A DNA stretch of 64,000 nt from NCBI RefSeq assembly GCF_004010195.1, contig NC_057719.1, positions 5,752,062 to 5,816,061 of the forward strand, given 5' to 3'. The DNA is from Chiloscyllium plagiosum (lineage: Eukaryota). Numbering within the stretch: the stretch's first letter is position 1; each line of letters starts with the position of its first letter. Positions 38 through 60,953 of this stretch are shown in pieces. Under the pieces are notes generated by a model that was given only the letters and a program-made list of their open reading frames with translations, made no database searches and was not told the origin of the DNA. The position numbers and the translations under genes were made by a program.

Positions 38-402
38 AAATACAGATAAAGAAGGACACCACTTCGACTGGGCCAACACATCCATTCAAGGACAAGCCAA
101 ACAAAGACGCACATGAGAATTCCTAAAAGCATGGATTTCCAACTGGAACTCTATCAACAAACACATCGAGTTAGACCCCATCTACCACCCCCTGAGAAAA
201 GGAACAGGAAGTGACTTCACCACAGGAAATAACATTACCACAGGAAATGACATCACCAACCCGAAGAAACCCCCAAACATATAAATAGAAAGCAGGAATT
301 TTCAGCATTGCTTTGCATGAGGCCCACTGAAGATGTTACCTAGTAAGGTAACAAAATGTATGGAAATGAACCTCCAAGCTCAGCGAGCAAACCTACATCC
401 AA
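38..402 (+). mobile_element. Penelope/Poseidon-type PLE 3' fragment (end of GIY-YIG domain plus terminus with decayed hammerhead)
   Basis: Reads TDKEGHHFDWANTSIQGQAKQRRT*EFLKAW and is homologous to 43970-44455. CTGAAGA-T-GTTACC...GGTAAC-AAAA at 327-356 has GAAA mutated to AAAA. Confidence 0.75.
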
Positions 403-409
403 AATTTGT

Positions 410-1030
410 GTCACTGATAGACAGGGTGGTTAAGACGACAGTTAGTATGCTTGCCTTCATCACTCAAATCTTTGAGTATAGGATTCGGGATGTCATGGTG
501 AGGTTTTGTAGCATGTAGGTGAGTCCTGTTCTATAGTACTGTGTGTAGCTCTGGTCACCTTGCTGCAGGAAAGGTATTAAACTTGAGAGGCTCAGAAGAG
601 CTTTACCAGGATGCCGCCAGGAATGGACAGTTTGAGGTATAAAAATAGGCTGGATCGGCTGGAATTTGTTTCACTGACATGTAAGAGGGGGTGACCTTAT
701 AGCACTTTATAAAATCATGAGGTTCTTTTCCCTAAGGTGACAGAGTTCAAAGCCTCACATATTTTTAAGGTGAGAGTAGAGAGATTTAAAAAGGACATGT
801 GGGGCAGCCTTTTTACGCAAAGGGTGGTTTGTGTGTGGAATGAACTGCTAGAGGAAGTGGTGGAAGCAGGTACAGTTGCAGTATTCAAAACACATTTGGA
901 TATGTGCATGAGCAGGAATGGTTTGGAGGGATGTTGCCCAAACACAAAAAAAAAGTGGGGCTCGTTTAGTTTGGGAACATGGTTGGCATGGACTTGTTGG
1001 ACTGAAGGGTCTGTTTCTGTGCAGCATGAT
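410..1030 (+). mobile_element. CR1 LINE 3' fragment, decayed
   Basis: Typical CR1 ORF2 C-terminus (FTQRVV.VWNEL.EEVVEAGT...FK.HLD) and 3' tail ggacttgttggactgaagggtctgtttc. Confidence 0.85.
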
Positions 1031-1377
1031 TCCACGGTTGAATATAGGGTCTTGACACTTTGACGGATGAAGTTGTTCCAAATTACAATCACTACTTGCT
1101 GTTATGAAGAGTGGGTCCTTGTTGGCATTTAATAGATCTGTTCTGGTTTGGTAGTGAATATGTAGGCAATCTGGTGTTGGTAATTGTCTTTATCTTTTCC
1201 ATAACACTCGTTTACAACTCCTAACCTGGCATAAATCTCCCTAATTTCCCGGAAACACATCTCGTTATATTAAAAGTTTGCAGTGCAACCCATCATATGG
1301 CAAACCGAAAAAAGAACTTTACAATTTATTTGAATTTCTCAGTAACAACTGAAAGAAAAACATTGAATTCCTCTTCA

Positions 1378-2095
1378 AAGAACAAAAAACAATACACCAC
1401 AGGAACAGGCCGCTTCAGTCAACCACGACTGTGCCAACATCTGATGCTTTTCTAATCAAGAAACCTTTTGCCTCTTGCAGTCCATATCCCTCTACTGGCA
1501 AGATGCCTGTTGACCATTGCTATTGTATTCATCTCCACCACCACCTCTGGCAGTGCATTCCAGACACTTATCACCCTCTATGTAAAAGACACCTGCTCCT
1601 TACATCTCTTTTAAACTCATCTCCTTTTACCTTAAACCTGTGTTCCTTAGTAATTGATATTTCTAAAACAAAACAGAAATTGCTGGAAAAGCACAGCAGA
1701 TCTGGCAGCATCTGTGGAGAGAACTCAGTTAACGTTCAGGTCTGAGGAGGGGTCGCTGGGCCTGAAACCTTAGCATCTGTGGAGAGAAATCAAAGTTGCC
1801 AGACTTGCTGAGCTTTTCCAGCAATTTTTATTTTTGTTTCTGATTTCCAGCATCCACAGTTTGTTAGTTTTTGTTTTAATTAACATTTCTACCCTGGGAA
1901 AAAGACTTTGACTAGCCATGCCTCTCATAATTTTGTACACTTCTATCAGATCCTCACCCTATGCCTTTCAAGTGAAAACAAACTACGTTCAATCACTCCT
2001 CATAACTAATACCTGTACCCTCTCCAAACCCTCCACATCCTTCTGGTATTGTGACCAGAACTGTACACAATATTCACAATGTGGCATAATCATGA
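1378..2095 (-). mobile_element. CR1 LINE 3' fragment interrupted by a PLE-derived fold-back
   Basis: Reverse-strand CR1 C-terminal sequence, with its tail at about 1380-1430. Confidence 0.75.
1666..1878. mobile_element. Short PLE-terminus fold-back, family B
   Basis: Inverted arms aaaacagaaattgctggaaaagc / gcttttccagcaattttt. Hammerhead-like CTGAGGA-GGGGTC...GGCCT-GAAA near 1742-1768. Imperfect TSD aattgatatttcta / aattaacatttcta. Confidence 0.75.
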
Positions 2096-4450: not shown

Positions 4451-4660
4451 AAAGTTAAAAATCACACAACACCAGGTTATAGTCCAACAGGTTTATTCGG
4501 AAGTACAAACTTTTGGAGTGCAGCTTCGTCCAAGACGCTACCTGACGTAGGAGCAACACTCTGAAAGCTTGTACTTTCAAATAAACCTGTTGGATTATAG
4601 CCTGGTGTTGTGTGATTCTTAACTTTGTCCACCCCAGTGCAACAGTGGCACCTCCACATC
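4451..4660. mobile_element. Short PLE-terminus fold-back, family C
   Basis: Inverted arms aaagttaaaaatcacacaacaccaggttatagtccaacaggtttatt / aataaacctgttggattatagcctggtgttgtgtgattcttaacttt, with a one-sided tail of about 34 nt. Decayed hammerhead CTGACGT-A-GGAGC...CTCT-GAAAGCTT. A related fragment lies at 39299-39390. Confidence 0.75.
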
Positions 4661-5167
4661 AGCTTTGCAAAGATTTCCTTCTGCTTGTTCTGGATCTTTT
4701 GCTAGAACCTTAAATCTGTGACCTCTAATTACCAATTCTTCTGCCACTGAAAGTATTTTTTTCTTTATTTACACTATCCAAACCATCAGAATTTTAAACA
4801 CTTCAATCAAATCTTCTCTTAATCTCTTCTGTTGTTTTAGGAGAGCAAACTCAGCTTCTCCAGATTATTCAGACATGTGAAACCCTTCAATCTTGGTGCC
4901 AACCCAGGAATTTTCCTGTGCACCCTCTTTAAGCCCTTGATATCTTGTTTAGAGTGGTGATCCAGAATTGAATATTGTACTCTAGTTCAAATTTAACTAG
5001 TATTTGTTAAACATTTAGTCTTACATCTTACATTTTATGTTCTGTTTATTTATAAAATTAAAATATGAAATTATTCCGCCTACTTTTTCTAACGGCCTTC
5101 TCAACCCATCCTGCAACCTTCAAAGATACGCCCCCAGTCTCCCTGTACACCTTATAAAATTGTCATT

Positions 5168-5460
5168 AAGATTAGAAATATTCTGTACAGCATGGGAACT
5201 GGCCATTTGGCCCAACAAGTCCATACTGACCCTCTGAAGAGTAACCCAACCAGACCCATTTCCCTGTGATTAATGGACCTAACACTATGGGCAGTTTAGC
5301 AAGGCCAATTCACCCTAACCTGCACATATTTGGACTGGGAGGAAACCCATGCAGACATGGGGAGAATGTGCAAACTCCAGACGGTCGCCCGAGGCTGGAA
5401 TCAAACCCGGTCCCTGGCGTTGAGGCAACAGTGCTAACCACTGAGTCACTGTGCCTCCCG
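5168..5460 (-). mobile_element. tRNA-derived V-domain SINE (HE1-like), older copy
   Basis: Reverse complement has a tRNA-like head, the V-domain core ggagtttgcacattctcccc and a CR1-like tail. Confidence 0.85.
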
Positions 5461-6147: not shown

Positions 6148-6281
6148 GCAAAAGTGAGGACTGCAGATGCTGGAAACCAGAGTTTAGATTAAAGGTGTGC
6201 TGGAAAAGCACAGCAGGTCAGGCAGCATCCGAGGAGCAGAAAAATTGACGTTTTGGGCAAAAGCCCTTCATCAGGAAGGTC
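6148..6281 (-). mobile_element. Short Neptune-PLE terminus, family A, single arm
   Basis: Homologous to 7855-7982. Exact 13-bp TSD atacagcaacatg at 6135-6147 and 6282-6294. Hammerhead GAAA is decayed to AAAA. Confidence 0.85.
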
Positions 6282-6876: not shown

Positions 6877-7010
6877 GTTTGTGTCTGGAGAAACTAGTAA
6901 TGGCAGCATCGCCAAGAAATGATCTGCAGCCTGATACCGAGCAAGAAATAATTACATGTTATGAAAAAGCTGGTGACATAGCTCTGCTTTACTTACAAGA
7001 AACTGAAAAG
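6877..7010 (+). CDS. TTC7B: Internal coding exon of TTC7B (tetratricopeptide repeat protein 7B), probably equivalent to human exon 4
   Basis: Acceptor tattttgtctccctag and donor AAG|gtaaga. The 134 nt read (G)LCLEKLVMAASPRNDLQPDTEQEIITCYEKAGDIALLYLQETEK, matching the TTC7B segment I recall as GLCLEKL...ITCYEKAGDIALLYLQE. The exon ends in phase 0. It is absent from the ORF track. Confidence 0.95.
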
Positions 7011-7854: not shown

Positions 7855-9180
7855 GGAGAAAGTGAGGTCTGCAGATGCTGGAGATCAAAGTTGAAACTTT
7901 ATTGCTGGAACAGCACGCAGGTCAGGCAGCATCCAGGGAACAGGAGATTCGACGTTTCGGGCACAGGCCCTTCTTCAGGAATGAGCAGAGAGTGTTCAGC
8001 AGGAGAAGATAAAAGGTAGGGAGGAGGGACTTGGAGGAGGGGCGTGGGAAATGGGATAGGTGGAAAGAGGTCAAGGGGAGGGTGATAGGTCGGAGTAGGA
8101 TGGAGGCGGAGAGGACAAGAAGAAGACTGCAGGACAGGAAGGCGGTGCCGGGCTGGAGGGTTGGTTCGTCCGGGTGGCCCAGAGGTGCTCTCTGAGTCGC
8201 TCCGCGAGTAGGCGGCCTGTCTCCCCAATATAGAGGAGGCCACACCGGCTGCAGCGGATGCAGTAGATGATGTGGGTGGAGGTGCAGGTGAATCTGTGGC
8301 GGATATGGAAGTTTCCCTTGGGGCCTTGGAGAGCAGTGAGGGGGGAGGTGTGGGCGCAAGTGTTGCACCTCCTGCGGTTTCAAGGGAAGGTGCCGGGAGT
8401 GGAGGTTGGGTCGGTGGGGGGTGTGGATCTGACAAGGGAGTCGCGGAGGGAGTGGTCTCTACGGAAAGCTGATAGGGGAGGGGAGGGGAATATATCCTTG
8501 GTGCTGGGGTCTGTTTGGAGGTGGCGGAAGTGACGGCGGGTGATGCGCTGTACATGGAGATTGGTGGGGTGGTAGGTGAGGACCAGTGGGGTTCTGTCCT
8601 GGTGGTGGTTGGAGGGGCGGGGCTCAAGGGCGGGGGAGCGGGAAGTGGAGGAGATGCGGTGGAGGGCACCGTCGACCGCGTCGGGGGGGAAATTGCGGTC
8701 CTTGAAGAAGGAGGCCGTCTGTGTTGTGCGTATTTTGAACTGGTCCTCCTGGGAGCAGATGCGGCGGAGTCGAAGGAATTGGGAGAATGGGATGGCGTTT
8801 TTACAGGGGGCAGGATGGGAGGAGGTGTAGTCCAGGTAGCTGTGGGAGTCGGTTGGTTTGTAGTAGATGTCCGTGTTGATTCGGTCGCCTGAGATAGAAA
8901 CAGAAAGGTCTAGGAAGGGGAGGGAGGAGTCCGAGACTGTCCAGGTGAATTTGAGGTCGGGGTGCAAGGTGTTAGTGTAGTGGATGAACTGTTCAACCTC
9001 CTCGTGGGAGCATGAGGTAGCGCCGATACAGTCATCAATGTAGCGAAGGATAAGATGAGGGGTGGGGCCAGTGTAGTTGCGGAAGATGGATTGTTCCACA
9101 TACCCTACGAAGAGGCAGGCATAGCTGGGGCCCATGCGGGTGCCCATGGCTACTCCTTTTGTTTGGAGAAAGTGGGAGGA
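7855..9180 (-). mobile_element. 5'-truncated Neptune-type Penelope-like retroelement (RT C-terminal half, Cys linker, GIY-YIG start, terminus)
   Basis: ORF 9147-8380 has MGTRMGPSYACLFVG, RYIDDC and LPFLD...IYYKPTD. After one TGA the same frame continues NRRRCNTC...HIIYCIRCSRCGLLYIGETGR. Exact 15-bp TSD ttaaactaacaaaga at 7840-7854 and 9181-9195. Confidence 0.93.
7947..7982 (-). ncRNA. Minimal type-I hammerhead ribozyme motif (family A), intact
   Basis: Minus strand reads AUUC-CUGAAGA-A-GGGC-cugu-GCCC-GAAA-C-GUC-GAAU: helix I AUUC/GAAU, helix II GGGC/GCCC, palindromic ACGU helix III. Confidence 0.85.
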
Positions 9181-11552: not shown

Positions 11553-11879
11553 ATTAGATTGAGATTAGATTAGATTACATTACAGTGTGAAAACAGGCCC
11601 TTTGGCCCAACAAGTCCACACCGACCTGCCGAAGCGCAACCCACCCATACCCCTACATTTACCCCTTACCTAACACTACGGGCAATTTAGCATGCCAATT
11701 CACCTGACCTGCACATCTTTGGACTGTGGGAGGAAACCGGAGCACCCGGAGGAAACCCACGCAGACCCGGGGAGAACGTGCAAACTCCACACAGTCAGTC
11801 GCCTGAGGCGGGAATTGAACCCGGGTCTCCGGCGTTGTGAGGCAGCAGTGCTAAGCACTGTGCCACCGTGCTGCCCACG
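11553..11879 (-). mobile_element. V-domain tRNA SINE (HE1-like), young full-length copy
   Basis: Near-identical to 47308-47619 and 57857-58169. It has A/B-box-like motifs, a V core and a (TCTAA)n tail. Confidence 0.92.
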
Positions 11880-13175
11880 GGAGGCAATGGTTATCAGGGA
11901 AGGCTACAGTCAATCAGCCATGCTCTTGTTGAATGGTAGATTGGCGAAAGGATCCTACTGTTGCACTGGACTGCACTGCACTGTCCATCTTTCTAAGGGG
12001 CTGTGCTTCTTTGTCCTGCATTGTGCTAATCTCCACGGGTGTTATTAGAACTGCATTCATCCAGGGAAGTGGGGAGCATCACTTCTGTCTTGGAGATGAT
12101 AGGCAGGTTTCAGGCAATTACAGAATAATACTCTGACTTTGTCAGTAGCCACCATATTTCTTTGGCTGGTGCAATTAAGTTCCTGTTTAATGGTGAGTCA
12201 CAGATTATTGATAGAAAGTGATTCAGTGATGATCATGCTGTTAAATATCATCATTGGAAGGTGATTAAGTGGAAGTGTCATTGCCTGGTGCTTGTGGTAC
12301 ATGAAAGCTACTAACCATATTTCAGCCATGGCCTTAGCTGGGCAATGACAGCTCCAGTGAAGTTCCATACTTGCAATATATTTCAGTTTGGTTGATAAGA
12401 TATGCTTACATGGAAAAGTAGTGCAGTGAGGTAAAAAGAAAAATCAAAATTAATCATGGAATAAAAATGAAATGCTTAGACTATAGAATGGTGACAGAAG
12501 GAGGCCAGTTGGCCCATTGTGTCATTTGGCTTTTCACAGGAGCAATTTGGCAAGTCCCACACTCCTGCCTTTTCCCCATATCCCTCCAATTTTTAAATGC
12601 TAGTTGTATTGAAAGAGTAAGAAAGATTTACCAGAGGATCATTGATAGTGTATTGCAGGGGGAGACATCCCACCCCATTGATAGTGTATTGTGGGAGATT
12701 CGTCCAAAATCTAACTAGTTTCTGTGGCTTTGCATAAAATGCATTTTATCTTTTATTTGTATCCTCAGTCTCCCTAGCGTGTTGCTTCAAAGCATTAAAA
12801 TTTGCAATGTTTATATCTTATTTGCATTGATTGACTTTGCATAAAACTTGCAAACTAGGGTCTGGCACATAGGGAACATTCTGGAAAACACACGTTAAGA
12901 AGACAGAGTGACAAAGTAATTTCCCACTGTTACTCTTGCTTGCCATCCCAAAGGGAGAGTGGGAGGAGCCTCCAATCTGCAAGCAGATTTCACTAAGTTA
13001 ACTGCAGGTAACACACACATTTAATTTGAGATACATTTATAGCAGTCAATCAAGCATATTATACTTGACGTGTGAACCCTAAATTTATAGCAGGGTTACC
13101 AACTCTAGCTGCACGTAATATTAGAGATTTTATCCACGACACTTCTTGCTATGATCTCAGCTGCTGGTCATATTA

Positions 13176-13382
13176 GGAGAAAGTGAGGAGTGCAGATGCT
13201 GGAGATCAGGGCTTAAAAATGTGTTGCTGGAAAAGTGCAGCAGGTCAGGCAGCATCAAAGGAGCAGGAGAATCGACATTTCGGGTTTAAGCCCTGAAGAA
13301 GGGCTCATGCCCGAAACATCGATTCTCCTGCTCCTTTGATGCTGCCTGACCTGCTGCACTTTTCCAGCAACACATTTTTAAG
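13176..13382. mobile_element. Family A PLE fold-back with hammerhead core
   Basis: Long inverted arms and a one-sided tail of about 36 nt. TSD tgctggtcatatta at 13162-13175 and 13383-13396. + strand CTGAAGA-A-GGGC-tcat-GCCC-GAAA-C-ATC at 13293-13320. Confidence 0.9.
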
Positions 13383-13849: not shown

Positions 13850-14545
13850 TAGGGGGAGGCGATGGCTTGGTGGCATTATCGCTGGAAACAACAAATGCTA
13901 GAGATCACAGCGGTCAGACAGCATCCATGGAGAGAGAGCAAGATACAGTTTTGAGTCAAGATGACTCTTCAAAAGTGAAGTGTGAAGCAAGTGAACGGGG
14001 CAGCATTTATGTTAAAGTTGGGTGTGGGTGTCGGGGTGGTGGGTGTAGATTGCTGGTGGAGGGAAAAAATGTTGGTAGTGATCAGAATGTGAGAATGTTT
14101 CAGATTAAGTGATAGGAATATGAGAATGTTCACTGGACTGTTAATGCAGAGACAAAACTAAAATTGCTGGAATATCTCAGCAGGTTTTTGTTTCAGATTT
14201 CCAGTATCCACAGTTCTTTCAGTTTTTTGTTAATCCAGAGATCCAGATAATGTTCTATCACTGCAGAGTAGAATTTGAATTCAATAAAAATTTGGAATTA
14301 AGAGTGTAATGATAACCATAAATCCATTGTCAGTTGTTGGAAAAATACATCTCATTCATGAATGTCCTTTAGGGAAGAAAACTAACATCCTTACCTAGTC
14401 TGGCCAACATGTGACTTCATGGTCATGCTGTTGGATATCATCATGGGATATCCAACAACAGCAATGTGGTTGGCTCTTAACAGCTCTCTGGTCAATAAAT
14501 GCCCTAACCAGTGATGATCTCACCCCATGAATGAATAAAAAAAAC
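13850..14545 (+). mobile_element. Second SINE family (tRNA-like head, tail shared with a CR1-group LINE), interrupted by two PLE-terminus insertions
   Basis: Head gggaggcgatggc..ggtggcattatcgctgga, core atgtcctttagggaag...gcaatgtggttggctcttaac, tail catgaatgaataaaa. Inserts at about 13885-14130 and 14150-14230. Confidence 0.7.
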
Positions 14546-17544: not shown

Positions 17545-17893
17545 TGCAGGTTTGGAGATTTGTAGCTCAGGTTGTGGATCAGGTTGTAAGTTTTCTCGCT
17601 GAGCTGGTAGATTTGTTCTCAGATGGTTCGTCACCATGCTAGGTAACATGATCAGTGAGCCTCTGGTGAAGTGCTGGTGTTCTGTCCCACTTGCTAGTTA
17701 ATAGACCCCATTTGCCAATCTCTCAGAAAAAGAACCGGAAATGATATCACCAACCACAACAGACCAAGACACACAAATAGCAAGTGGGACAGAACGCCAG
17801 TGCTGCATCAGAGGCTCACTGATGATGTTACTTAGCATGGTGACGAAATGTCTGAGAACAAATCTACCAACTCAGTGAGCAAACCTACAACCT
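17545..17893. mobile_element. Poseidon-type PLE terminus fold-back (family D)
   Basis: Arms about 17581-17696 and 17778-17893 are reverse complements. The right part is homologous to 44270-44455. Confidence 0.85.
17815..17856 (+). ncRNA. Minimal type-I hammerhead ribozyme motif (family D), sense to TTC7B
   Basis: CUCA-CUGAUGA-U-GUUAC-uuagcaug-GUGAC-GAAA-U-GUC-UGAG, with helix I CUCA/UGAG and helix II GUUAC/GUGAC. Confidence 0.8.
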
Positions 17894-19098: not shown

Positions 19099-19239
19099 TT
19101 AATGCCAGGTGACAGGCGAGTGACTTGCCTTGACATCAAGGCAGTATCTGACCAAGTGTGAAATCACCAACAACTTTTATTGTGTCTATAACATTACAAA
19201 ACAACTAAACCGTTCAACATGACATTAAGGATCGTCCTT

Positions 19240-19490
19240 AATGTTCTGTCCCATCTGTCAATCTTCCTTCCCACTTATCCGCTCCACCCTCCTCTCCGAC
19301 CTATCACCTTCACCCCCACTTCCATCCACCTATTACACTCTCAGCTACCTTCATCCCAGCCCCACCCCATTCCCATTTATCTCTCCACCCATGACGCTCC
19401 CAGCCTCATTGCTGATGAAGGGCTTTTGCCCAAAACATCAATTTTCCCGCTCCTCCGATGCTGCCCGACCTGCTGTGCTTCTCCAGGACC
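19240..19490 (+). mobile_element. Family A Neptune 3' terminus with decayed hammerhead
   Basis: C-rich 3' region followed by CTGATGA-A-GGGC-tttt-GCCC-AAAA-CATC. Confidence 0.75.
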
Positions 19491-21342: not shown

Positions 21343-21364
21343 TGTGTAAAAGGTTGACCTGACT

Positions 21365-42776: not shown

Positions 42777-42888
42777 GCGAAAGTTCAATGCCTCATTCCT
42801 GATGAAAGCTTTTTCCTGAAATGTCGATTTTCCTGCTCCTCGGATTCTGCCTGACCTGCTGTGCTTTTCCAGCACCACTCTGATCTCG
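42777..42888 (+). mobile_element. Family A terminus with decayed hammerhead
   Basis: CTGATGA...GAAATGTC core. TSD acctgaaat(g/a)tcctg at 42762-42776 and 42889-42903. Confidence 0.8.
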
Positions 42889-43419: not shown

Positions 43420-44456
43420 CTTTGCTTTAACAAGGGGAGAATATGGATGTAAAGTTTGCTTACTGAGCTGGTTGAGTATCAAATACTCAACTACAGGGGC
43501 AATCATTGCCACACCCACAAACGTAACTGCATCAGGACATTATTTAAATCAGCTACAACACACTGCCGCACCCAGGAACTATGAGGCAGCAGAAGAAAAA
43601 TACCTATACAGCGTATTCAAGAAGAACAGGTACCCGATAAACACGGTCCACTGATTCTTAAACAACAAGCCCAAACGAGAGACACAACTTGCCACACTAC
43701 CATCCATCAAAGGCATCTCTGAGATGTCTACCAGACTACTCTGACCTCTTGGCATCGTGGTAGCCCATAAACCTACTAACACACTGAAACAGCTACTGAT
43801 GAACCTAAAGGATCCTGCACCAACAACTAGCAAATCAAATGTCATATGCAAAATACCCTGCAAGGACTGCAATAAACAAAATGTTGGACAGCCAGCCAGA
43901 AAACTAGCCACCAGGATACACAAGCACCAACTAGCCACCAAAAGACATGACAAGCTATCACTAGTATCCTTACACACAAACAAAGAAGGAAACCTCTTCG
44001 ACTAGGACAGGCTAAACAGAGACATGCACGGGAATTCCCAGAGACCTGGCATTCAAGCCGGAACGTGTAGAAAGTGAGTACTGCAAATGCTGGAGAACAG
44101 AGTCAAGAGTGTGGTGCTGGAAGAGCACAGCAGGTCTGGCAGCATCCAAGGAGCTGGAGAATCCACATTTCAGGCATAAGCCCTTCATCAGGAATGACTG
44201 ATTTGCTGTGCTTTTCCAGCACTATACTCTCGATTCAAGCCAGGACTCCATCAATAAACACATCGATTTGGACCCCATTTACCAAACTTCGAGAAAAAAA
44301 ACTGGAAATGATATCATGCACCTTAACAGACCAAGACACACAAATGGAAAGCTGGATAGAACACCAGTGCTTCAACGGAGGTTAACTGATGATGTTACCT
44401 AGCATGGTGGTGAAACATCTGAGAACAAATCTACCAGCTCAGTGAGCTACAAATCT
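43420..44456 (+). mobile_element. Poseidon-type PLE 3' part (RT thumb to GIY-YIG to terminus), with a nested family A insert at about 44069-44232
   Basis: VFKKNRYPINTV and VAHKPTNTLKQLL..LKDP...KSNVICKIPCKDC.KQ.VGQ..RKLATRI..H. Hammerhead-like CTGATGA-T-GTTACC...GAAAC-ATC-TGAG near 44386-44423. Confidence 0.88.
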
Positions 44457-45242
44457 CAAAAATTGTAGATAAGGAGTTGTCTGATAAGTAGACTTTCATT
44501 ACCATTACTAAAGGAACCTTGTGTGGTTTTTGTTTATCCTGAATAGCAATCAGCTAGAGGCCAATGGGGTCTTTGCTAATTTTGTTAACTTTTATCATTT
44601 ATGGTGACTGTGGAAATAATGAGGCTTGATTTCCAGTGCACTACCCCAGTGAGTTGTGGCAAGTGTATTGGAATACTTTCTACTTGTCTGGATGACTGCA
44701 GCTCCAATAACACTTGAAGCTCATCACCATCCAGGATAAAGCATCAAGCTTGAATGAAACTTCATGCACTATTTTAAACATTCAATCCAATCACCACTGA
44801 TTCATCAGGTGTGTGCACCATCCAAGAAATATAGTGCAGCAACTCACCGAGGCTCCTTTGATAATACCTTCCAAACCCTGTCACTTAACAGGACAGGTTA
44901 ATGGGAACATCAATCACTATAGTTTTCCATCCAAGCTGCACACTTTGCTTGAAAATAGATTGCTGTTCCTTCACTGCCTAGGACAACAATCTGAAACTTT
45001 CTCTCTGACAACTATAAGTGTATCTGCTGCATGAGGAAAGGTGCCTATCATTGACTTCTACATCAAACCACTGGAATTTGTAATAATCAAACATTTCAGC
45101 ATATCCAGAAATTAGAACTTCTTAGACTTTCTAAAGTCCTCTCACTGAACTCCAGGAATACAAATTTAAAAAACTTTGTGCACCACACAATAGAACAATC
45201 CTCCCAGAATCCAATATGGTTAATGTCTTTTTATTTTAAAAG

Positions 45243-46961
45243 GGTCGTGTGAGGGAGCCGTGGTTTAATAAGGAATTGGAATCCCTTGTTAAATGGAAGA
45301 GGGCGGCCTATGTAAAGATGAGGCGTGAAGGTTCAATTGGGGCGATTGAGAGTTATAAGGTAGCCAGGAAGGACCTGAAGAGAGAGCTAAGAGCAGCAAG
45401 GAGGGGACATGAAAGGTCCTTAGTTGGTAGGATTAGGGAAAACCCTAAGGCTTTCTATAGGTATGTCAGGAATAAAAGAATGACTAGGGTAGGAATAGGT
45501 CCAGTCAAGGATAGTAGTGGGAAGTTGCGTGTAGAGGCTGAAGAGATTGGGGAGACACTGAATGAATACCTTCCGTCAGTAATCACTCAGGAACAGGACA
45601 TTGTTGCCGATGTAAGCTATAGGGAGAGGCTGAACAGGCTGGGACTGTTTTCCCTGGAGCGTCGGAGGCTGAGGGGTGACCTTATAGAGGTTTACAAAAT
45701 CATGAAGGGCATGGATAGGGTAAATAGGCAAAGTCTTTTCCCTGGGGTCAGGGAGTCCAGAATGAAAGGGCATGGGTTTAGGGTGAGAGGGGAAAGATAT
45801 AAAAGAGACCTAAGGGGCAACTTTTTCACACAGAGGGTGGTACATGTATGNNNNNNNNNNNNNNNNNNNNNNNNNNNNNNNNNNNNNNNNNNNNNNNNNN
45901 NNNNNNNNNNNNNNNNNNNNNNNNNNNNNNNNNNNNNNNNNNNNNNNNNNNNNNNNNNNNNNNNNNNNNNNNNNNNNNNNNNNNNNNNNNNNNNNNNNNN
46001 NNNNNNNNNNNNNNNNNNNNNNNNNNNNNNNNNNNNNNNNNNNNNNNNNNNNNNNNNNNNNNNNNNNNNNNNNNNNNNNNNNNNNNNNNNNNNNNNNNNN
46101 NNNNNNNNNNNNNNNNNNNNNNNNNNNNNNNNNNNNNNNNNNNNNNNNNNNNNNNNNNNNNNNNNNNNNNNNNNNNNNNNNNNNNNNNNNNNNNNNNNNN
46201 NNNNNNNNNNNNNNNNNNNNNNNNNNNNNNNNNNNNNNNNNNNNNNNNNNNNNNNNNNNNNNNNNNNNNNNNNNNNNNNNNNNNNNNNNNNNNNNNNNNN
46301 NNNNNNNNNNNNNNNNNNNNNNNNNNNNNNNNNNNNNNNNNNNNNNNNNNNNNNNNNNNNNNNNNNNNNNNNNNNNNNNNNNNNNNNNNNNNNNNNNNNN
46401 NNNNNNNNNNNNNNNNNNNNNNNNNNNNNNNNNNNNNNNNNNNNNNNNNNNNNNNNNNNNNNNNNNNNNNNNNNNNNNNNNNNNNNNNNNNNNNNNNNNN
46501 NNNNNNNNNNNNNNNNNNNNNNNNNNNNNNNNNNNNNNNNNAAGATCGTATGAGGAGAGGCTGAGGCACTTGGGGTTGTTTTCATTGGAGAAAAGAAGGT
46601 GTAGGGGTTACTTGATAGAGGTGTACAAGATGATTAGGGGTTTAGATAGGGTCGACAGTGAGAATCTTTTGCTACGTATGGAGTCAGCTATTACAAGGGG
46701 GCATAGCTTTATAAATTAAGGGGGGGTAGGTATAGGACAGATGTTAGGGGTAGGTTCTTTACTCAGCGAGTCGTGAGTTCATGGAATGCCCTGCCAGTAG
46801 CAGTGGTGGACTCTCCCTCATTATGGGCATTTAAGCGGGCATTGGATAGGCATATGGAGGATAGTGGGCTAGTGTAGGTTAGGTGGGCTTGGATCGGCGC
46901 AACATCGAGGGCCGAAGGGCCTGTACTGCGCTGTATTCTTCTATGTTCTATGTTCTATGTT
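45243..46961 (+). mobile_element. CR1 fragments spanning an assembly gap
   Basis: PWFN...ENPKAFYRYV linker, RLGLFSLERRRLRGDLIEVYKI on both sides of the gap, and a (TATGTTC)n tail at about 46940-46961. Confidence 0.88.
45851..46541. other. Assembly gap (691 N)
   Basis: N run. Confidence 1.
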
Positions 46962-47307: not shown

Positions 47308-47619
47308 AGATTTAGATTTAGATTAGATTACAGTGTGGAAACAGGCCCTTCGGCCCAACAAGTCCACACCGACCCGCCGAAGCGCAACCCACCCCTACAT
47401 TTACCCCTTACCTAACACTACGGGCAATTTAGCATGGCCAATTCACCTAACCTGCACATCTTTGGACTGTGGGAGGAAACCGGAACACCTGGAGGAAACC
47501 CACGCAGACACGGGGAGAACGTGCAAACTCCACACAGTCAGTCGCCTGAGGCGGGAATTGAACCCGGGTCTCTGGCGCTGTGAGGCAGCAGTGCTAACCA
47601 CTGTGCCACCGTGCCGCCC
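47308..47619 (-). mobile_element. V-domain tRNA SINE, young full-length copy
   Basis: Near-identical to 11553-11879. Confidence 0.92.
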
Positions 47620-48747
47620 AATAGGTTCTTATGTTTTGGTGGAAACAAACACTATTAACATTTTGTTGGAACTAAGCATCACCATAGACTGTTTAGTTCA
47701 TACTGACCAAATATTCCTTTACTAAGTGTCAGTTTCTTTGGAACAATGATCTAATACTGTCCATCAATGATTACTTACAAACTTTCTTCTTTATAGGTTA
47801 GTGTTATTAGTGTACATATACATTAACGCATGTGTGCTGCTCCTCTGCTTTGGTGTTCTTCAATTATTAAAACTCAGTCGTAAACCTAAAATTTTATCAT
47901 TTACATTAATCTGTCTGTGGAGAATTGTACATTCTGATTCAAAATAATAAAAATCAGAGATGCCTGGATCATGGCTGACAAATATTGGAAAGCTTTTCTT
48001 GCTGAATCAAGCCTCAAATCTAACGTTGTTATTAAAAATGCTTGATTTATTTTTGTATGATATAACCCAGCTGCAGAGACAATTGAAGCACATGCCTCGG
48101 ATACTGATTGAATGAGTGATAAAAGGTAGATGACAAGCAAAATAGATTGAATCTTGGAGCAATGTAGTTCAGTGTGAATGAATATATTCAATTTCTGCAG
48201 CCACCCCTAATCTGAGTTCCTGATCTAAGTGACAGGAATTAAAAATGCATGAGACAGAGGCAGCAGTTCTTTTCAGTCTGGGCAGCTGTGCCCAGATGGT
48301 GCCATAATCCTCCATTGTTTGACCAACAGATCATCGAAAAGCCTTAGAGCAGACGGTTAATGTTAGTGGCACAGGTGAAATGAGATTGTTTACATTGGAG
48401 AGGACAACTTGTAAACACTATATGACTGATGAATCGAAGGATGGTATACCCATAATTCACCAAACATCCAACATTACAGCTGTTTCCATTCCCAAACTTT
48501 GGCAACAGATGTTAGCTTCAAACCATCACACTGCATTGAAAACTCAAGACAATTAATTATTCTGTGTCTACAGTATTTCATGTCACACTCAAGGTTGAAA
48601 AAGATATTCATGTTCAAACAGTGCAAAATAAAATTCAAATATAACTACTTTGTATCTTTTGAAATTCACAGACCTGCAAAATAAGTTAGTGCATTGAACA
48701 CTTAAATTCCATTTTCTTCAGTAATAGAATTGACTTATCAGGATGTG

Positions 48748-49250
48748 AGGAGAACGTGAGGACTGCAGATGCTGGGGATCAGAGTTGAAAAGTATGACAC
48801 TGGAAAAGCACAGCAGGTCAGGCAGCATCCAAGGAACAGGAGAGTCAGCATCATGATTCTTGGTGAAGGACTAATGCTCAGTGGTTAGCACTGCTGCCTC
48901 GCAGCACCAGGGATCCGCGTTTGATTCCAGCCTCGGGTGACTGTTTATGTGGAGTTTGCACACTCTCCCCGTGTCTGCGTGGGTTCTCTCTGGTGCTCCA
49001 GTTTCGTTCCATAGTCTGGAGATGTGCAGGTTAGGTGAATTGGCTATGCTAAATTTCCCCTAGTATTCAGGGATGTGTAGCTTAGGTGCATTAGTCAGGG
49101 GTAAATGTAGAGTAATAGGTAGAATTGGTCTGGATGTGTACTAGTTGGAGGGTTGATGTGGGCTTGTTGGGCCAAATGGACTGTTTCCACACTAGAGATT
49201 CTGTGAATCCTTGGCTGCTGCCTGACCTGTTGCGCTTTTCTAGCCCAAAC
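48748..49250. mobile_element. Family A fold-back interrupted by a + strand V-SINE (about 48879-49205)
   Basis: Left arm 48748-48850 and right arm remnant gctgcctgacctgttgcgcttttctagc at about 49216-49244. Confidence 0.8.
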
Positions 49251-50087
49251 TTGTAAGGAGATAAGGTTAACTTGAATCATAGTAATTGTAATAAACGTTG
49301 AACTGAATAATAATATAGTTCACTGGAGGATTGAATAAAAACGCCAGCCAGATTTTCAGGCACACTTTCAGCAGTAGAGGTAATGAAAGCACTAATTAAC
49401 AAGTTGGTATCTGTTTCTATCTCCCATATTCACTGCCTTATCCAATTGCCAGTAATCTCAGAACTCATCTTCAGTGATCCACAAGCTGCCCAGTTAGCTA
49501 CTGAAAATCCTTCTTACTGAAAATAAGTCTTTCCCTATTGCAAGGTGCCTAGCATATCTTGGAACTATCTGTTCCATAAATGTTACCTATAATAGATTGT
49601 TGGCTTGCTCAGGACAAAATTGGATACAAATAGACAATTCTATCACAAACAGAAATTGGCTATCTCTGGTCATGGAGGCTGGCTGAGCAGAGTGTTCCAG
49701 TATTTTCTATTATAAATTCAGATTTCTTGCATCTGGAACATTTTGCTTTAGTTTTAAATTTACTTTTGAAGTGTAGCTAGTGCTATAAATGAGGGAAACA
49801 TAGTAGCCACTTTGCATACAAGAAGTGGCTAGTTTAAGTGTTTTTAGAATTGTTTGAGAGACAAAGATTTAGGTGATTCAAGAGGGAGGGGGCAGGTAAT
49901 TAATGACTTAGGTTTAAACTTGTGCATTAAAACAATGTTAAGACTGAAAGCTGAGGAATTCCACCAAAATGAAAGAATGAGCTAAATATTGGACAGCACG
50001 ATGAGCCTTGATTTCAAAACTGTCATTGCACTGAGATTTAACGAGATATTAACTAGCAATACTGGCAGTCATGGTTCATAACCGGTG

Positions 50088-50208
50088 AAAGTGGGTACTG
50101 CAGATGCTGAAGATTAGAGGTTCCTGATGAAGGGCTTTTGCACGAAACATCAATCTTCCTGCTCCCGGATGCTGCCTGAACCGTTGTGCTTTTCCGACAC
50201 TAATCTTG
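50088..50208. mobile_element. Collapsed family A fold-back with + strand hammerhead remnant
   Basis: CTGATGA-A-GGGC-tttt-GCAC-GAAA-C-ATC, flanked by tggtt(c/t)ataac. Confidence 0.75.
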
Positions 50209-53390: not shown

Positions 53391-53545
53391 CAAAAACAGA
53401 AATTACTCAGATCTGGCAGCATCTGCATAGATTCCAAAGAAGAGTCCCTGGACCTGAAATGTTAACTCTGACTTCTCTCCACAGATGTTGCCAGACTCCT
53501 GAGTTTTCCCAGCAATTTATGTTTTTATTTCTGATTTCCAGTATC
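53391..53545. mobile_element. Family B fold-back, decayed
   Basis: aaaaacagaaatt...tctggcagcatctg / cagatgttgccaga...cagcaatttatgttttt; GGACCT-GAAATGTTAAC remnant. Confidence 0.7.
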
Positions 53546-54639
53546 CACATTTCATTGCTTTTTAAAATCCCCAACAATATCCACATCTTCAGCCCTGGCC
53601 TAATCCTTATTAAATTGTTTGGCTGAGTTTTGAATTCATGAGACTTGGGCTGCTATCATTTTTCTAATTGTTCCATATATCATCTCAGCATTGGTCATTT
53701 AGTCTGTTTGCAGTTACTGGTGTACATGGTTCAATGTATCGAAATTAAATTGCTAGTGCCAACGTTTGTGCAGTAAACAATTGTAGTTATTGTACAGCTT
53801 GCTACAGAACTGGTCTTCATGCCTTTCACAGTAATAAGATCACACTGAATATGCATCAGCTTGTTAGCATTATGTTTTTCAGTCAATACTAATGTCAGTT
53901 GCCTAGCTAACAAGCTGTAGATATAGTATATTTTAGGGATTGTTTTCTTACTGAGAAACATCAGCAATATAACATAGAGCTGCATTTCAGCAGTCTGTGA
54001 CATATGTCTACTGAGAGCCAGCCAGCAGGTTCAACATAGCAATTCATTTTTATATGGAATTGCTTTGAATTTACAGTATTGAAATAGGCCATTTGATGTA
54101 ACGAGACTCTGTTGATGTTTGTCTGCTACACAAGTCTCCTCCTACCTTACTTCACCTCACCCTCTAATCTATCTTCTATTCCCTCTTCTGCATATCCTTA
54201 TCTACTTTATCTTCAAATGCATCTATTCATCTCAAACATCACTTGGGGTTGCACATTCCAAACTAACCACTTTCTGGCTAAAGATGTTTCTCCTGAATTC
54301 CTGATTGAATTTATTGGAGACGATCTGACAGTTATGTTTTGAAGCTTTAGACTAGCATCTTTTCTGTGTTTGACCCAATACATAATTTCATATGTTTAAA
54401 GACATCTTGTGCAATCTATTGGCTTCCTGTTTCTTGAAGCTTGTTCAATATATTCCTGAAGGTTGACCAGAACTGAGAGGTTATAACTGTTTATCATTCA
54501 GAACTATCAGCTGACTAATAAAGTTAGTTAAATAGCAGTCTTCAGGAAGATACCTATCTTAAGATAGTAGAGGGGACAGACAAGGTGACTCTCTTAGTCC
54601 CCCTTCGCAAAAAGAAAGAACAATTGGCTTCAATTCCAC

Positions 54640-55175: not shown

Positions 55176-56009
55176 TATTTTTGCAGCCAAATAGTGACTC
55201 TGTCTCTGTTCTGGGAAACAAGAAATGAAACGTATTGCAATTCTCCCATCTTAATTGCATAAATTGTAGAGCATATTTTTATCATTTACACCATTTTCAT
55301 TAAAACAATGAGGCTCCCATTGAAACTCATTAGAAGAGAAAAGGCCTTTTCATTGTGATGTTGAGTTTCTCAACAAGAAAATAGCATTGTAATTTTCTTT
55401 GTGCTATGAGCCACATTTAGATTCTCAATTTGGTCATAGTATTGATATCCATCTGTCTAAGTGGTACTCCTTTATTAACTCTTTGGTGAATTTCCATATT
55501 ACTGAAATGTAAATGTTTTTACTAAGCGACAATAACTAATTTATATTATAGTGCTAATATTTTTGTTCTAACTGTGAATGGACTGTGCTCTCAACCTGCA
55601 CATTTAGATCAGTGAACTGATTTTAACATTATCATCTTGACATGAGGGATGGTCTATGCATAGACTTGTAAGAACAAATATGACATTGTGCAAACTGCTC
55701 ATACACAGCTGTCCTGGTGTGCTGCCAGAACAATATAAATTGGCGAATTTACAAACAGGAACATGGATGGAAAGAACCGGTTGATTCATTTCAGTGTAGA
55801 GATACCTTAATAAACATCTCTGATCCCATACCATTACACCAGATACAGTTTAGTTCTGTTTATAATGCTGGCACTTCTCCTTGGCAGGGAAAGAAATGTA
55901 AAAGAAATCCCATAGTGTTAAGGGAACTATAGGAATGATACAACACAGAAGGGGGCCATTCTGGTCACCTTGTTTATGCTGACTCACAGACACCCAGGCG
56001 CACTTTTTA

Positions 56010-57258
56010 AGAAAGGTGGGCGAGAGAAAGCAGGAAATTATAGTTAGTCTGACCTCAGTGGTGGGAAAGATGCTGGAGTCTATTATAAAGGACGAAATTA
56101 CTGCACATCTGGATAGTAGTAACAGGATAGGACAGAGTCAGCATGGATTTATGAAGGGGAAATCATGCTTGACTAATCTTTTTGAATTTTTTGAGGATGT
56201 AACAATGAAGTTGGACGAGGGAAATCCAGTAGAGGTAGTGTACCTGGACTTTCAGAAAGCTTTTGAAAAAGTCCCACACAGGAGGTTAGTGAGTAAAATT
56301 AGGGCGCATGGTATTGGGGGCAAAGTACTAGATTGGATTGAAAATTGGTTGGCTAATAGGAAACAAAGGGTAGTGATAAACGGCTCCATTTCAGAATGGC
56401 AGACAGTGACCGGTGGGGTACCGCAGGGATCCGTGCTGGGACCACAGCTATTTACAATATATTGTAATGATATAGAAGATGGTATCAGCAATAACATTAG
56501 CAAATTTGCTGATGACACAAAGCTGGGTGGCAGGGTGAAATGTGAGGAGGATGTTAGGAGATTACAGGGTGACCTAGACAGGTTAGGTGAGTGGGCAGAT
56601 GCATGGCAAATGCAGTTTAANNNNNNNNNNNNNNNNNNNNNNNNNNNNNNNNNNNNNNNNNNNNNNNNNNNNNNNNNNNNNNNNNNNNNNNNNNNNNNNN
56701 NNNNNNNNNNNNNNNNNNNNNNNNNNNNNNNNNNNNNNNNNNNNNNNNNNNNNNNNNNNNNNNNNNNNNNNNNNNNNNNNNNNNNNNNNNNNNNNNNNNN
56801 NNNNNNNNNNNNNNNNNNNNNNNNNNNNNNNNNNNNNNNNNNNNNNNNNNNNNNNNNNNNNNNNNNNNNNNNNNNNNNNNNNNNNNNNNNNNNNNNNNNN
56901 NNNNNNNNNNNNNNNNNNNNNNNNNNNNNNNNNNNNNNNNNNNNNNNNNNNNNNNNNNNNNNNNNNNNNNNNNNNNNNNNNNNNNNNNNNNNNNNNNNNN
57001 NNNNNNNNNNNNNNNNNNNNNNNNNNNNNNNNNNNNNNNNNNNNNNNNNNNNNNNNNNNNNNNNNNNNNNNNNNNNNNNNNNNTCTCTGGATTCATTTAA
57101 GGAAGGATTGGATAGAGCTCTCAAAGATAGTGGAATCAAGAGTTATGGAGATAAGGCAGGAACAGGATACTGATTAGGAATGATCAGCCGTTATTATATT
57201 GAATGGCGGTGCAGGCTCGAAGGCCTGAATAGCCTACTCCTGCACCTATTGTCTATTG
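56010..57258 (+). mobile_element. Young CR1 RT core and 3' end, spanning a gap
   Basis: Open frame SLTSVVGKMLE...QHGFMKGKSCLTNL...GVPQGSVLGP...SKFADDTKL. Confidence 0.95.
56621..57083. other. Assembly gap (463 N)
   Basis: N run. Confidence 1.
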
Positions 57259-57856
57259 TCAAACAGCTCCAGCCTCCCAAATTGTCCTCGTAGCTACAGT
57301 TCTCCATCCCTGGCAACATCTCTGAACACTCTGCAGAGCAATTATGTTCTTACATATTAGCAGCTGATTCCCAAGCCAAATTGGTGGAATAGGACTTCTC
57401 AAGCAATGGTGTGCAAAATGATAGAGAAGTTCAGGTAATCCATTAGTGGAAATCTTCACATGCAGGTGTTTAATCTTCTGTGCGATCAATTTCACAGAGC
57501 ACCAGAGGTTTTTAAAACATGTTGAAAGCAATGATGATGAAGATGTCAGCTGGCTGTTTGGTTTTGTATATAATCCCAATTTCAGAATTAAGCAGCCTTG
57601 AGTGAGATTAGAAGAGTTGGTTATGTTACCAAATAGTGAATGCAGATACCTGAATTCTGGCAAAAGCTGTCTAGCTTATTCAAAAAGGAAAAAAGTGAGC
57701 AATGAGTTAGGATTGACATTTCAGGGGGGCATTGGACAACTATGGAACATTGGCAATAATTGCAGGTGAATTTCTTATTGCTCAAGTCCTTACCTGGTCT
57801 GACCTACCTGTAACTCCAGACCCACAGCAATGTGGTTGACTCTTAACTGGCCTCTA

Positions 57857-58169
57857 GGTGGCACAGTGGTTAGCACTGCTGCCTCGCAGCGCCAGAGATC
57901 CGGGTTCAATTCCCGCCTCAGGCGACTGACTGTGTGGAGTTTGCACGTTCTCCCCGTGTCTGCGTGGGTTTCCTCCGGGTGCTCCGGTTTCCTCCCACAG
58001 TCCAAAGATGTGCAGGTCAGGTGAATTGGCCATGCTAAATTGCCCGTAGTGTTGGGTAAGGGGTAAATGTAGGGGTATGGGTGGGTTACGCTTCGGCGGG
58101 TCGGTGTGGACTTGTTGGGCCGAAGGGCCTGTTTCCACACTGTAAAGTAATCTAATCTAATCTAATCTA
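57857..58169 (+). mobile_element. V-domain tRNA SINE, young, inserted into a second-family SINE (57788-58240)
   Basis: ggtggcacagtggttagc A-box, gggttcaattccc B-box and a (TCTAA)n tail; the host element resumes at ggcaattaaggatgggc. Confidence 0.92.
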
Positions 58170-60646
58170 GGCAATTAAGGATGGGCAATGAATACCGACC
58201 TAGCCAGAAATGGCCTTATCCCGTAAATGAAGTTTTAAAAAGTACAGATAAAAGTGATGTGTTGTGTAAATCTGATGGTAAAGTTCTGAAATTATTTCAA
58301 AGTTGCTTGTTAGTGTATGTAGTTCACAGTTTCTTTTCTCCTCTGCTATGATGATCATTCTTCTTTCCTGTGTCCCTTACTTTATTCAGTCTGTATTCCA
58401 TTACTTTTTTTCTTCAAACCTGGCCATGCGGTACAGGTCCATTGAATAGAATGAGCCCTTTTGTTTGGAAGATTTATTTTTGCTGAGTGGTATAGCTTTC
58501 ATTGTTTTTGGAATAACAAAAATAGCGTGAATTTCATCTAGTGGCTACATTTTTAGGTTATAGGTTGATGTAGAAGTGTTATTGCTTAAAATGTACATCT
58601 TACAAACCCTTAGGCCCAGAACTGTGTTCTATAGGATCACACTTAGTGCCTTCCAACCTTTGCTTGTCTGTAAACTACAAGCATTCAATGTAACAACACA
58701 AATATTATGTAAATATCAAAGCTGTCTCATACTTGTCTTATAGACGTAATCAAGATTATACCATTCATTTTGGTCATTGTGTTTAAAATGTTCAAGAACA
58801 GTTTTGGAGTATGCAGATAGCTAAATTCAGGACTTAAATTTATCTATCTAATTTCCCTTTCTACTATACTGATCTGTATTGGAATATATTTTCATGGACA
58901 TTGGATGCTATCCATCGCCCTGTTGAACTGGTTATGCTTCATGTCTGAGCCCTTGGCAGTAAGTGTCAACAATCTGTCTGATTGAGGAATCACAGCTGAC
59001 CCTTGATACTCAATCTCACAGTCGCTTGCAAGACATCTTTCTTATCACTGTTGTACAGCAGTGTGGAATAGAGTTGATTAGAAGCCAGCAACATCGAAAA
59101 GAGAACAAATCAAAGTGCGCTATCCATGAACAGTTCTTAGTCACAAGTTAGAGCAGCTGTAACAGAGATCTGGATACAGGCCAAAAATATTAACTTCAGT
59201 GAGAGACAAAAGAAAAGTTGAAACAATACCATTAGTATAATTTATGCTGTGTAAAGCATATGAAGTTTGAGCTGTAACTTTTTAAACAAAAGTTTTTAAA
59301 TTCAGCTAACTCTGAAAGTGAAGAAGGTCAACAAGGCATGGTGCAGGAGGTATGGAGGGTGTGCGGATAAGTTCTATAAGCAGACCGTTAGTGGTTTTGT
59401 AGCTCAGAAACTGATTATTTTCTGGAAAAAAAGGCACACTTAGGCAAAGTTCTTTTTTAATCTTGAGCTCATCAGGCCAATTCACACAAATACGAAATTC
59501 GAGGGGAGAATTCAGTATAGGAAGGGAAGAATTGCTGCATTTTCGCCTCTAATGTTTGGAGCGGTTGATATAGTTTGAGGTAAAATTTTAACTTATAGAG
59601 AAAGAAAAAAGACGAAAAAAATGTAAATAAAATAGACTAAACAGATTGTGTATTTGGAGTGCAGTATGGGACTCTGTGGACCAGGAACCTGTCTTGATGG
59701 AACACATTTGCAGTAGAGGATTTAACTGGGGAAAAAAACAGCATTATTTACAAGCAGGTTTTTGGGCCCATAAGTACATAGCCAGTCTGATGCCGGGATA
59801 AGAGATATCTCAAACCAGTTTGAAATGATATACGGGGGTTAAAATCTCTGAATTATTCGCCAATGCATGTGAAAATTAACGCAGGTAAGGAATGTAATGC
59901 ACATGGTTGAAGAAGTGATGTAAATTTGGCATCAATATTGAGACAGGATAGCTGTGATATTAGGATGGACATCAGAGTTTTGGGTGAAAATGTTAATGGT
60001 TGTGATTCGGGTGTCAGAGAAGAATGCTCGGATAGAAAAAAAAATAGTTGTTTTATTTATAGATTAAATGCAAAAGAAATAAGACCAGAGTGGTCAGAAG
60101 TTATGGTTTACACATAGATTGGTAAACCAGGAAGAGGAGATAAACATGTGAAGACCGCATTGGACCTGAAGGGCAAATTCGACTATGTGATCCACAAAAG
60201 CTATCGTTTATGCAAGCACACATTGTAAAAGTAACAAATTGAATGAATTACAGATCTAAATTCATCTTGGAAGGAATGATGCGGTGGCTATTACTAAGTA
60301 TGAGTCTAAATGACCATAAGACATAGGAACAGAAATTAGGCCATTCAGCCCATCATGTCTGTTCTGCCATTCAATCGTGGCTGATAATTTTCTCAACCCC
60401 CATTCTCCTGCTTTCTCCCCATAAACCTTGATCCTCTTGATACTCAAGAACCTATCTATCTCAGTCTTAAATATACTCAATGACCTGGCCTCCGTTGTCT
60501 TCTGTGGCAATGCATTCCATCAATTCACCACTTTCTGGCTGAAGAAGTTTCTCCTTACCTCCGTCTTAAAAGGTCCAGCCTTTACTCTAAGGCTCTGCCC
60601 TCGGGTCTCTACCACTGGAAGCATCTTCCCAGGATCTACTCAGTCC

Positions 60647-60953
60647 TCTGGGACTCTGGGACACCCGGACCAACCAACCCAACCACCCTGTGGCTCAACA
60701 CTTCAACTCCCCCTCTCACTCCACCAAGGATATGCAGGTCATTGGACTCCTCCATCGCCAGACCACAACAACACGACGGTTGGAATTGCATTTCCGACAC
60801 CCCTCCCCCAAGTCCCTCCTCCCTACCTTTTATCTTAGCCTGCTGGACAAACGTTCCTCATTCCTGAAGAAGGGCTTATGCCCGAAACGTCGATTCTCCT
60901 GTTCCCTGGATGCTGCCTGACCTGCTGCGCTTTTCCAGCAACACATTTTCAGC
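60647..60953 (+). mobile_element. Family A Neptune 3' fragment (GIY-YIG remnant plus terminus)
   Basis: VAQHFNSPSHS..DMQVIGL followed by the family A terminus. TSD tctact(c/a)agtcc at 60635-60646 and 60954-60965. Confidence 0.88.
60860..60895 (+). ncRNA. Minimal type-I hammerhead ribozyme motif (family A), intact core, sense to TTC7B
   Basis: AUUC-CUGAAGA-A-GGGC-uuau-GCCC-GAAA-C-GUC-GAUU; helix I has one U-U mismatch. Confidence 0.8.

Follow-up and report, generated by a model that had tools for sequence, protein, structure and literature searches.

Within 64,000 nucleotides of the genome of the shark Chiloscyllium plagiosum (contig NC_057719.1, positions 5,752,062 to 5,816,061 of the forward strand; hereafter the window), which include two exons of the gene TTC7B, we find numerous short sequences that carry the core of the hammerhead ribozyme. 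We interpret them, with a probability of roughly 90%, as minimal type-I hammerheads in the end modules of Penelope-like elements (PLEs), now present as insertion remnants that have mostly decayed and are probably without effect on the host gene.

Hammerhead cores in the window

With the core defined as CUGANGA ... GAAA ... UH, a core-only search in which pairing was not required returned 12 matches in the window; 100 shuffles averaged 0.59 and never exceeded 3. A strict descriptor returned 3 matches against a shuffle mean of 0.005, and none of 200 shuffles attained 3. Every strict match has an extra base between A9 and helix II, and the G10.1-C11.1 closing pair is present in 21 of 21 aligned rows, one of which is one column off. 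All 17 matches of a covariance model at E ≤ 0.01 are sites of four families, termed A to D; a fifth hammerhead family, looked for in the window with the same model and threshold, was not found. For three copies named in a preliminary description of this DNA (A at 7947-7982, minus strand; B at 29380-29417, minus strand; D at 17815-17856, plus strand), the coordinates, sequences, helices I and II, and ACGU or AUGU palindromes proved exact.

The motif is short and lacks an Rfam match (see below), which could speak for a chance resemblance or a bias of the descriptor. This explanation is refuted by the shuffle and pairing-blind controls, and the motif holds a fixed position downstream of PLE open reading frames (ORFs), leaving it a negligible probability. 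We regard the motif observation as confirmed: the sequences are minimal type-I hammerheads at PLE ends.

Four families of motif-bearing arms

Using family hidden Markov models built from window copies, we assigned 41 arms to the four families (20 to A, with a further micro-arm seen by eye, 13 to B, 3 to C, and 5 to D), corresponding to ~27 insertions; an earlier count of about 20 PLE termini was too low. The motif is covered by 23 sites, of which 12 keep the full core (A 8, B 2, D 2, C 0) and 5, all in family A, keep a perfect ACGU palindrome as well. The palindrome reads ACGU in seven A sites and two B arms and AGCU in both C sites; for D, TpG/CpA decay points to an ancestral palindrome. The insertions and their motifs are as follows.

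7855-9180, minus strand: family A PLE, 5'-truncated, with the C-terminal half of the reverse transcriptase (RT), an internally deleted GIY-YIG domain, 3' untranslated region (UTR), hammerhead and long tail; exact 15-bp duplication
7947-7982, minus strand: family A hammerhead of this element; core intact, ACGU, 4-bp helix I (copy-specific)
6148-6281, minus strand: family A solo mini-insertion; G12 to A (core broken), exact 13-bp duplication
13175-13382: family A head-to-head pair; plus arm with intact core and decayed palindrome, exact 15-bp duplication
19232-19498, plus strand: family A copy that includes the 3' UTR; broken core
21136-21342: family A head-to-head pair; intact minus arm that retains ACGU, exact 13-bp duplication
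23074-23253: family A head-to-head pair; minus arm core intact with ACGU, 5' strand of helix I cut, 14-bp duplication
31512-31735: family A head-to-head pair; intact minus arm that retains ACGU, G8 to A in the plus arm
42777-42888, plus strand: family A copy; all core letters kept, damage in helix II, and an inverted micro-arm of 10 nt identified by eye
44067-44258: family A pair nested in a D element; position 17 is G
48747-49254: family A pair split by another repeat; minus arm begins at the predicted cut site
50083-50207: family A pair; plus arm with an intact core but a decayed palindrome
60647-60953, plus strand: family A copy with endonuclease remnant; its motif (60860-60895) is the only sense-strand intact core with ACGU
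29286-30700, minus strand: family B PLE, decayed, with RT thumb, GIY-YIG remnant, 3' UTR, hammerhead and long tail
29380-29417, minus strand: family B hammerhead; core intact, AUGU
1659-1869: family B head-to-head pair, decayed
33275-33413: family B head-to-head pair, core broken
53391-53560: family B head-to-head pair, core broken
29031-29111, plus strand: family B short arm that begins in helix II, ACGU kept
14126-14220: family B inverted pair, tail only
4451-4662: family C head-to-head pair, with A9 to U in the motif of the plus arm (4539-4573)
39299-39386, plus strand: family C copy adjoining an assembly gap, core broken
171-403, plus strand: family D divergent copy; G12 to A, helices I and II unlike those of other D copies
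17545-17895: family D head-to-head pair; plus-arm hammerhead at 17815-17856 with intact core and AUGU
43442-44470, plus strand: family D PLE, 5'-truncated, with a short inverted arm, RT thumb, GIY-YIG remnant, and hammerhead at 44386 (core intact, palindrome decayed)

Helix I varies between families, with 4 bp in B at 29413 and in D at 17819, 3 bp in C, and an interrupted stem in the usual A copy, where 2 bp are followed by a U·U mismatch and 1 bp. U occupies position 1.3 in 11 of the 12 A copies that have the 3' strand, so the AUUC/GAAU helix proposed for family A is correct for the cited copy at 7947-7982 and for that copy only. The description of C as a decayed family with a GGAG/CUCY-like helix II and AGCU fits the sites at 4542 and 39309, but neither has an intact core (A9 to U in one; C3 to G and A13 to U in the other). 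A further D site, at 17655, is broken by G8 to C.

Families A and B, at first taken to be otherwise dissimilar, share a segment downstream of the motif with ~70% identity. Judged by this similarity, A and B are homologous, and the four families represent at most three independent lineages.

Association with PLE coding sequences

The A motif lies downstream, on the same strand, of the C-terminal half of an RT and a GIY-YIG domain at 9180-8074 (minus strand), the latter scoring 24.5 bits against a cut-off of 22.6 in the element at 7855-9180. The B motif follows a decayed ORF related to that of A (~30700-29680), and the D motif is preceded by a remnant of an RT thumb and GIY-YIG domain (~43480-44060), which shares 77% identity with a protein of Stegostoma. 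Pfam did not recognize the decayed fragments of B and D, five of seven pieces giving no match. The proteins closest to the A-element ORF come from carpet sharks (Chiloscyllium, 80%; Rhincodon, 76%). For A, B, and D, these co-oriented upstream remnants bear out the proposal that the hammerheads are PLE-borne. The anatomy of C is likewise PLE-like, with an inverted pair and one long end, and its end modules are likely also derived from PLEs.

Outside the window, one relative (L003, 910-4176) is a full-length PLE in which a hammerhead lies in each of two direct repeats of 201 bp; its open frame passes through the upstream motif. In a Stegostoma protein (P0005), the predicted C-terminus continues across the 3' UTR and enters a peptide resembling the one encoded by the family A motif, a read-through which hints that this motif follows the ORF in the zebra shark too. 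The exact family A pattern had no match in viral contigs and none in metagenome contigs, and a PLE protein profile run against 49 viral stretches gave no confirmed relative.

A Cys-rich zinc-finger linker between RT and endonuclease is present in two shark relatives of A (P0002 and P0004), decayed in the A and B copies of the window, and absent from D, from relatives of D, and from the proteins P0242 and P0244. This linker marks the Neptune and Nematis clades and is missing from Penelope/Poseidon (PMC8557442).

Covariation of the helices

Between the window families, pairs of helices I and II are exchanged; at 2.1-1.1, A and C have C-G, B has U-A, and D has A-U. Among window copies, compensatory change was seen twice, each time in helix I (D at 327 versus 17819; C at 4542 versus 39309). 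Of 467 metagenome loci that encode relatives of the A protein, the best 80 served for a wider comparison. Searched for the core without regard to pairing, these 80 loci yielded 29 sense and 5 antisense matches, against 0.9 per strand in shuffles. In the 21 distinct sense rows, 119 of 147 helix cells are paired against a permutation mean of 81, a value of 119 being attained in 0 of 5000 permutations; this control ignores relatedness and retains non-ribozyme matches. A mixed alignment, some of whose rows were picked for pairing and one of which is misaligned, is 87.5% paired, with double changes at seven of eight pairs. The covarying helices of the preliminary description are thus upheld between lineages, whereas among copies they amount to the two helix I swaps.

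Anatomy and proposed origin of the insertions

Head-to-head pairs, 110-350 bp in length, account for many of the copies, and most units are only 110-220 bp long. In all eight A pairs the two ends are unequal, the short one lying at ~+85 to +100 relative to C3 and the other at +107 to +127, some of these ends having been placed by eye; the junctions of pairs show overlaps of 2-3 nt. Target duplications, counted in 20 insertions without a shuffle control, are exact over 13-15 bp in 5, span 12-15 bp with one or two mismatches in 7, and are unconvincing in 8. The A pair at 44067-44258 was inserted into the D element at 43442-44470 and is therefore the younger of the two. At the junction of one A pair (21234-21269), part of the motif region is duplicated and a run of A residues occurs, which suggests repeated template slips while the arms were being joined.

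By inference from known PLEs, these structures would arise as follows. The PLE protein would cut target DNA with a stagger of 13-15 nt, and reverse transcription would start 60-100 nt downstream of the hammerhead, at two sites separated by ~35-40 nt. With both DNA ends used for copying, the product would be a head-to-head pair of unequal arms, one long and the other short, joined via microhomologies of 2-3 nt. With priming at this distance, any copy longer than ~100 nt would carry the motif. The motif of the source element would likely cut weakly after NUH, either as a dimer held by the 4-nt palindrome or with help from protein, and inserted copies would decay neutrally, mainly at the CpGs of the core and palindrome.

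Alternatively, the mini-insertions could form a separate non-autonomous family, similar to short interspersed elements (SINEs) or retrozymes, spread from a few master loci that start at the hammerhead. Such a family would be in keeping with their uniform size, their common 5' ends, and the identical junction of the pairs at 13175-13382 and 23074-23253, and retrozymes do derive from PLE ends (bioRxiv 10.64898/2026.07.22.740005). The longer end lies on opposite arms in these two pairs, however, and they must therefore have formed separately. Moreover, long ORF-bearing copies have the same ends and duplication size, and no tandem head-to-tail motif units occur among the window repeat families shown. 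We therefore consider a non-autonomous family unlikely.

Decay, predicted activity, and the host gene

About half of the motif sites (11 of 23) are broken, and changes among copies fall mostly at CpGs. The CpG at C11.1-G12 is altered in ~10 of 23 sites (counted by eye), and TpG or CpA stands in the palindrome at 11 of 21 non-C sites. These CpG-type changes support an ancestral ACGU followed by neutral decay; the occurrence of both TpG and CpA forms, with ACGU persisting in two B arms, agrees with the earlier view of AUGU as CpG-decayed ACGU. One B plus arm (1742-1800, plus strand) has an internal inversion of ~25 nt right after the motif and differs from the intact B copy by several A-to-G changes, for which hairpin RNA editing is one possible cause.

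The self-duplex of helix III has a predicted energy of -1.7 kcal/mol for ACGU and -2.5 kcal/mol for AGCU, and decayed forms give positive values. Together with the instability predicted for the usual A helix I (see below), this makes it likely that most window copies are inert. Among published minimal PLE hammerheads, a monomer was inactive and dimers were of low activity (PMC4209133), and the motif of an anole PLE cleaves only with protein, cleavage not being needed for insertion in vitro (PMC11167929).

It could still be that some copies act as host-relevant intronic ribozymes that cut TTC7B pre-mRNA, as 7 of the 12 intact cores lie on the TTC7B sense strand and one of these, at 60864, also has ACGU. 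With five intact cores antisense, no strand bias is evident among the 12. The remaining four copies that keep both core and palindrome, however, are all antisense, and the sense copies lie kilobases apart. The 11 broken sites, the CpG type of the changes, and the low or protein-dependent cleavage in published systems (PMC4209133, PMC11167929) further argue against a host function, which we judge very improbable. No effect on TTC7B is indicated.

Several observations weigh against the interpretation of the motifs as PLE hammerhead remnants. An Rfam covariance-model scan, proposed originally for the whole genome and run here on the window, gave 17 matches at E ≤ 10, none of them to a hammerhead family; the top matches are hairpin artefacts of the inverted pairs. 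Monomer folds are not more stable than those of shuffles (z -0.1 to -1.8), and the usual A helix I, with a predicted duplex energy of +1.3 to +1.4 kcal/mol, would not be stable alone, so that the activity of the commonest motif is uncertain. No ORF was found for family C within the window, nor any full-length or tandem PLE, all copies being truncated, although the absence of a full-length ORF between direct pseudo-long terminal repeats (pLTRs) is what remnants would be expected to show. The insertion steps proposed above derive from a lizard element in vitro (PMC11167929) rather than from families A to D. Finally, the clade labels, by which A and B look Neptune-type and D Penelope/Poseidon-type, come from the linker motif and not from a tree.

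Clustered 5' ends and a possible RNA start

Twelve of the 20 A arms, seven short-ended and five long-ended, begin between -9 and +7 of C3 (mode -4/-3), a cluster matched in at most 4 of 20,000 simulations with exponential lengths; arms within one insertion are non-independent (12 insertions). A sequence TCA(G/T)T(C/T), with A at -4, occurs in four of the five A copies with upstream sequence and in the sole such B copy, and resembles what we take to be the initiator consensus. It is absent from C, from D, and from the 19 outside motifs compared.

These features raise the possibility that the short A, B, and C insertions are run-off copies of an RNA leader, whose initiator lies 4 nt before the core and whose reverse transcription starts internally ~90-130 nt downstream. 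This would refine, rather than replace, the interpretation as PLE remnants. The A-arm starts cluster near -4 whichever end the arm has, the initiator-like sequence sits at -4 in both A and B, only 1 of 20 A arms begins at the cut site, and internal initiation has been shown for the anole element (PMC11167929). On the other hand, the dependence between arms of one insertion tempers the cluster, and the initiator match was noticed post hoc, overlaps helix I, and is missing from the other motifs listed above. D arm starts show no cluster, inverted arms of outside relatives begin at the motif in only one of four cases and lend no support, and in Drosophila Penelope the start is located ~120 nt farther 5' (PMC2377424 with PMC4209133). 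Stalling of the polymerase, or joining at microhomologies in a stretch so rich in palindromes, could likewise bring ends together. On balance, we put the leader model forward tentatively, its chances being slightly below even. A broader proposition, that carpet sharks bear the densest vertebrate hammerhead load yet seen because their Neptune-type PLEs start RNA 4 nt before the core and insert a 90-130 nt leader from both target ends, is more doubtful. If it is true, the clustered 5' ends would record, as a fossil map, where the RNA began and would be direct genomic evidence for an uncut RNA template.

Comparison with known systems

Across the 62.3 kb of called bases, we calculate by hand ~190 intact cores per Mb (from 12) and ~48 strict matches per Mb (from 3). 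For a shark genome that we take to be 3-4 Gb, a load of ~100,000 or more intact cores is plausible if this window, which was selected and yields small counts, is typical. Published numbers per genome, obtained with a different descriptor, are 4,000 in the coelacanth and 9,000 in Xenopus (PMC4209133); the local shark density (3 strict matches in 62 kb) looks higher, with the caveat that the descriptors differ.

Minimal hammerheads in the pLTRs of metazoan PLEs were described in 2014 (Cervera and De la Pena, PMC4209133). The A to D sites have in common with that class the type-I core, the extra base after A9, G10.1-C11.1, a palindromic 15-16 segment without loop 3, and, less clearly, a short helix I, and the class also occurs as several families per genome, mostly in dispersed truncated copies with some close opposite-strand pairs. 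The shark motifs differ in a helix II of 4-6 bp and in the U·U mismatch of the A helix I, and no shark is among the taxa named in the available part of that article.

The insertion unit also has precedent. PLE units comprise an inverted 5'-truncated copy and a tail of 30-40 bp on one side (PMC8557442, PMC3846280), and their head-to-head arms, one-sided tail, target duplication, and microhomology junctions match the shark units (Craig 2021, PMC8557442; Arkhipova 2013, PMC3846280); unequal ends as in the eight A pairs are reported there and in PMC11167929. Duplications are longer in the shark, at 13-15 bp versus 8-10 bp in rotifer PLEs (PMC8557442, PMC3846280). Shark units are also mostly 110-220 bp long with 5' ends clustered at the 5' edge of the motif, a clustering not stated for the units in the available parts of those two papers. 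The Anolis Poseidon element PAc (Frangieh 2024, PMC11167929) resembles the shark arms in having two 3' end positions downstream of the hammerhead; the short and long ends of the A pairs fit the two internal priming sites demonstrated for it, and its unprocessed RNA template fits shark copies that keep the whole motif. In contrast to PAc, A and B look Neptune-type, and an ORF start in stem II was not found for them. Non-LTR retrozymes contain PLE-related type-I hammerheads and are present in the sole chondrichthyan sampled (bioRxiv 10.64898/2026.07.22.740005); they are tandem head-to-tail arrays, whereas the shark copies are dispersed or inverted and have target duplications.

The motif class, its link to PLEs, and the insertion unit are thus already published, and the shark families are added members; as a motif class, they contribute shark examples to the group described in 2014. 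The clustering of 5' ends at the A core is a less-described trait. We found no published description of these families in the open literature searched, although Repbase, Dfam, subscription journals, or supplements may have them. Their value lies in a natural dataset of short, datable PLE insertions, whose ends, junctions, and duplications test PLE integration. This dataset bears on whether the hammerhead cuts during integration, a question still open in the published accounts available to us (PMC8557442, PMC11167929).

Host gene and neighboring repeats

Two consecutive coding exons place the window in TTC7B, which lies on the plus strand.

6877-7010, plus strand: TTC7B coding exon; PDB TTC7B match at E 1e-11, 95% identity to Hemiscyllium TTC7B
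33497-33618, plus strand: next TTC7B coding exon; PDB TTC7B match at E 1e-15, tblastn 98%

No further TTC7B exon was found in the window, so the DNA flanking both exons is inferred to be intronic, in agreement with the initial placement of the motifs in TTC7B introns.

An abundant repeat of ~300 bp, probably a SINE, splits one family A arm at 48876-49196, and related copies lie near 5165-5460, 11560-11870, 34460-34745, 47320-47620, 57845-58165, and 63880-63990. Assembly gaps occupy 38799-39298, 45851-46541, 56621-57083, and 63875-63889, one of which removes the 5' side of the second family C copy (39299-39386). Fragments of RT and endonuclease resembling long interspersed elements (LINEs) are numerous (20350-24020, 45240-46700, 55980-57170, and 62500-63900) and presumably CR1/L2-like; two of them are 93-96% alike across 270-300 bp.

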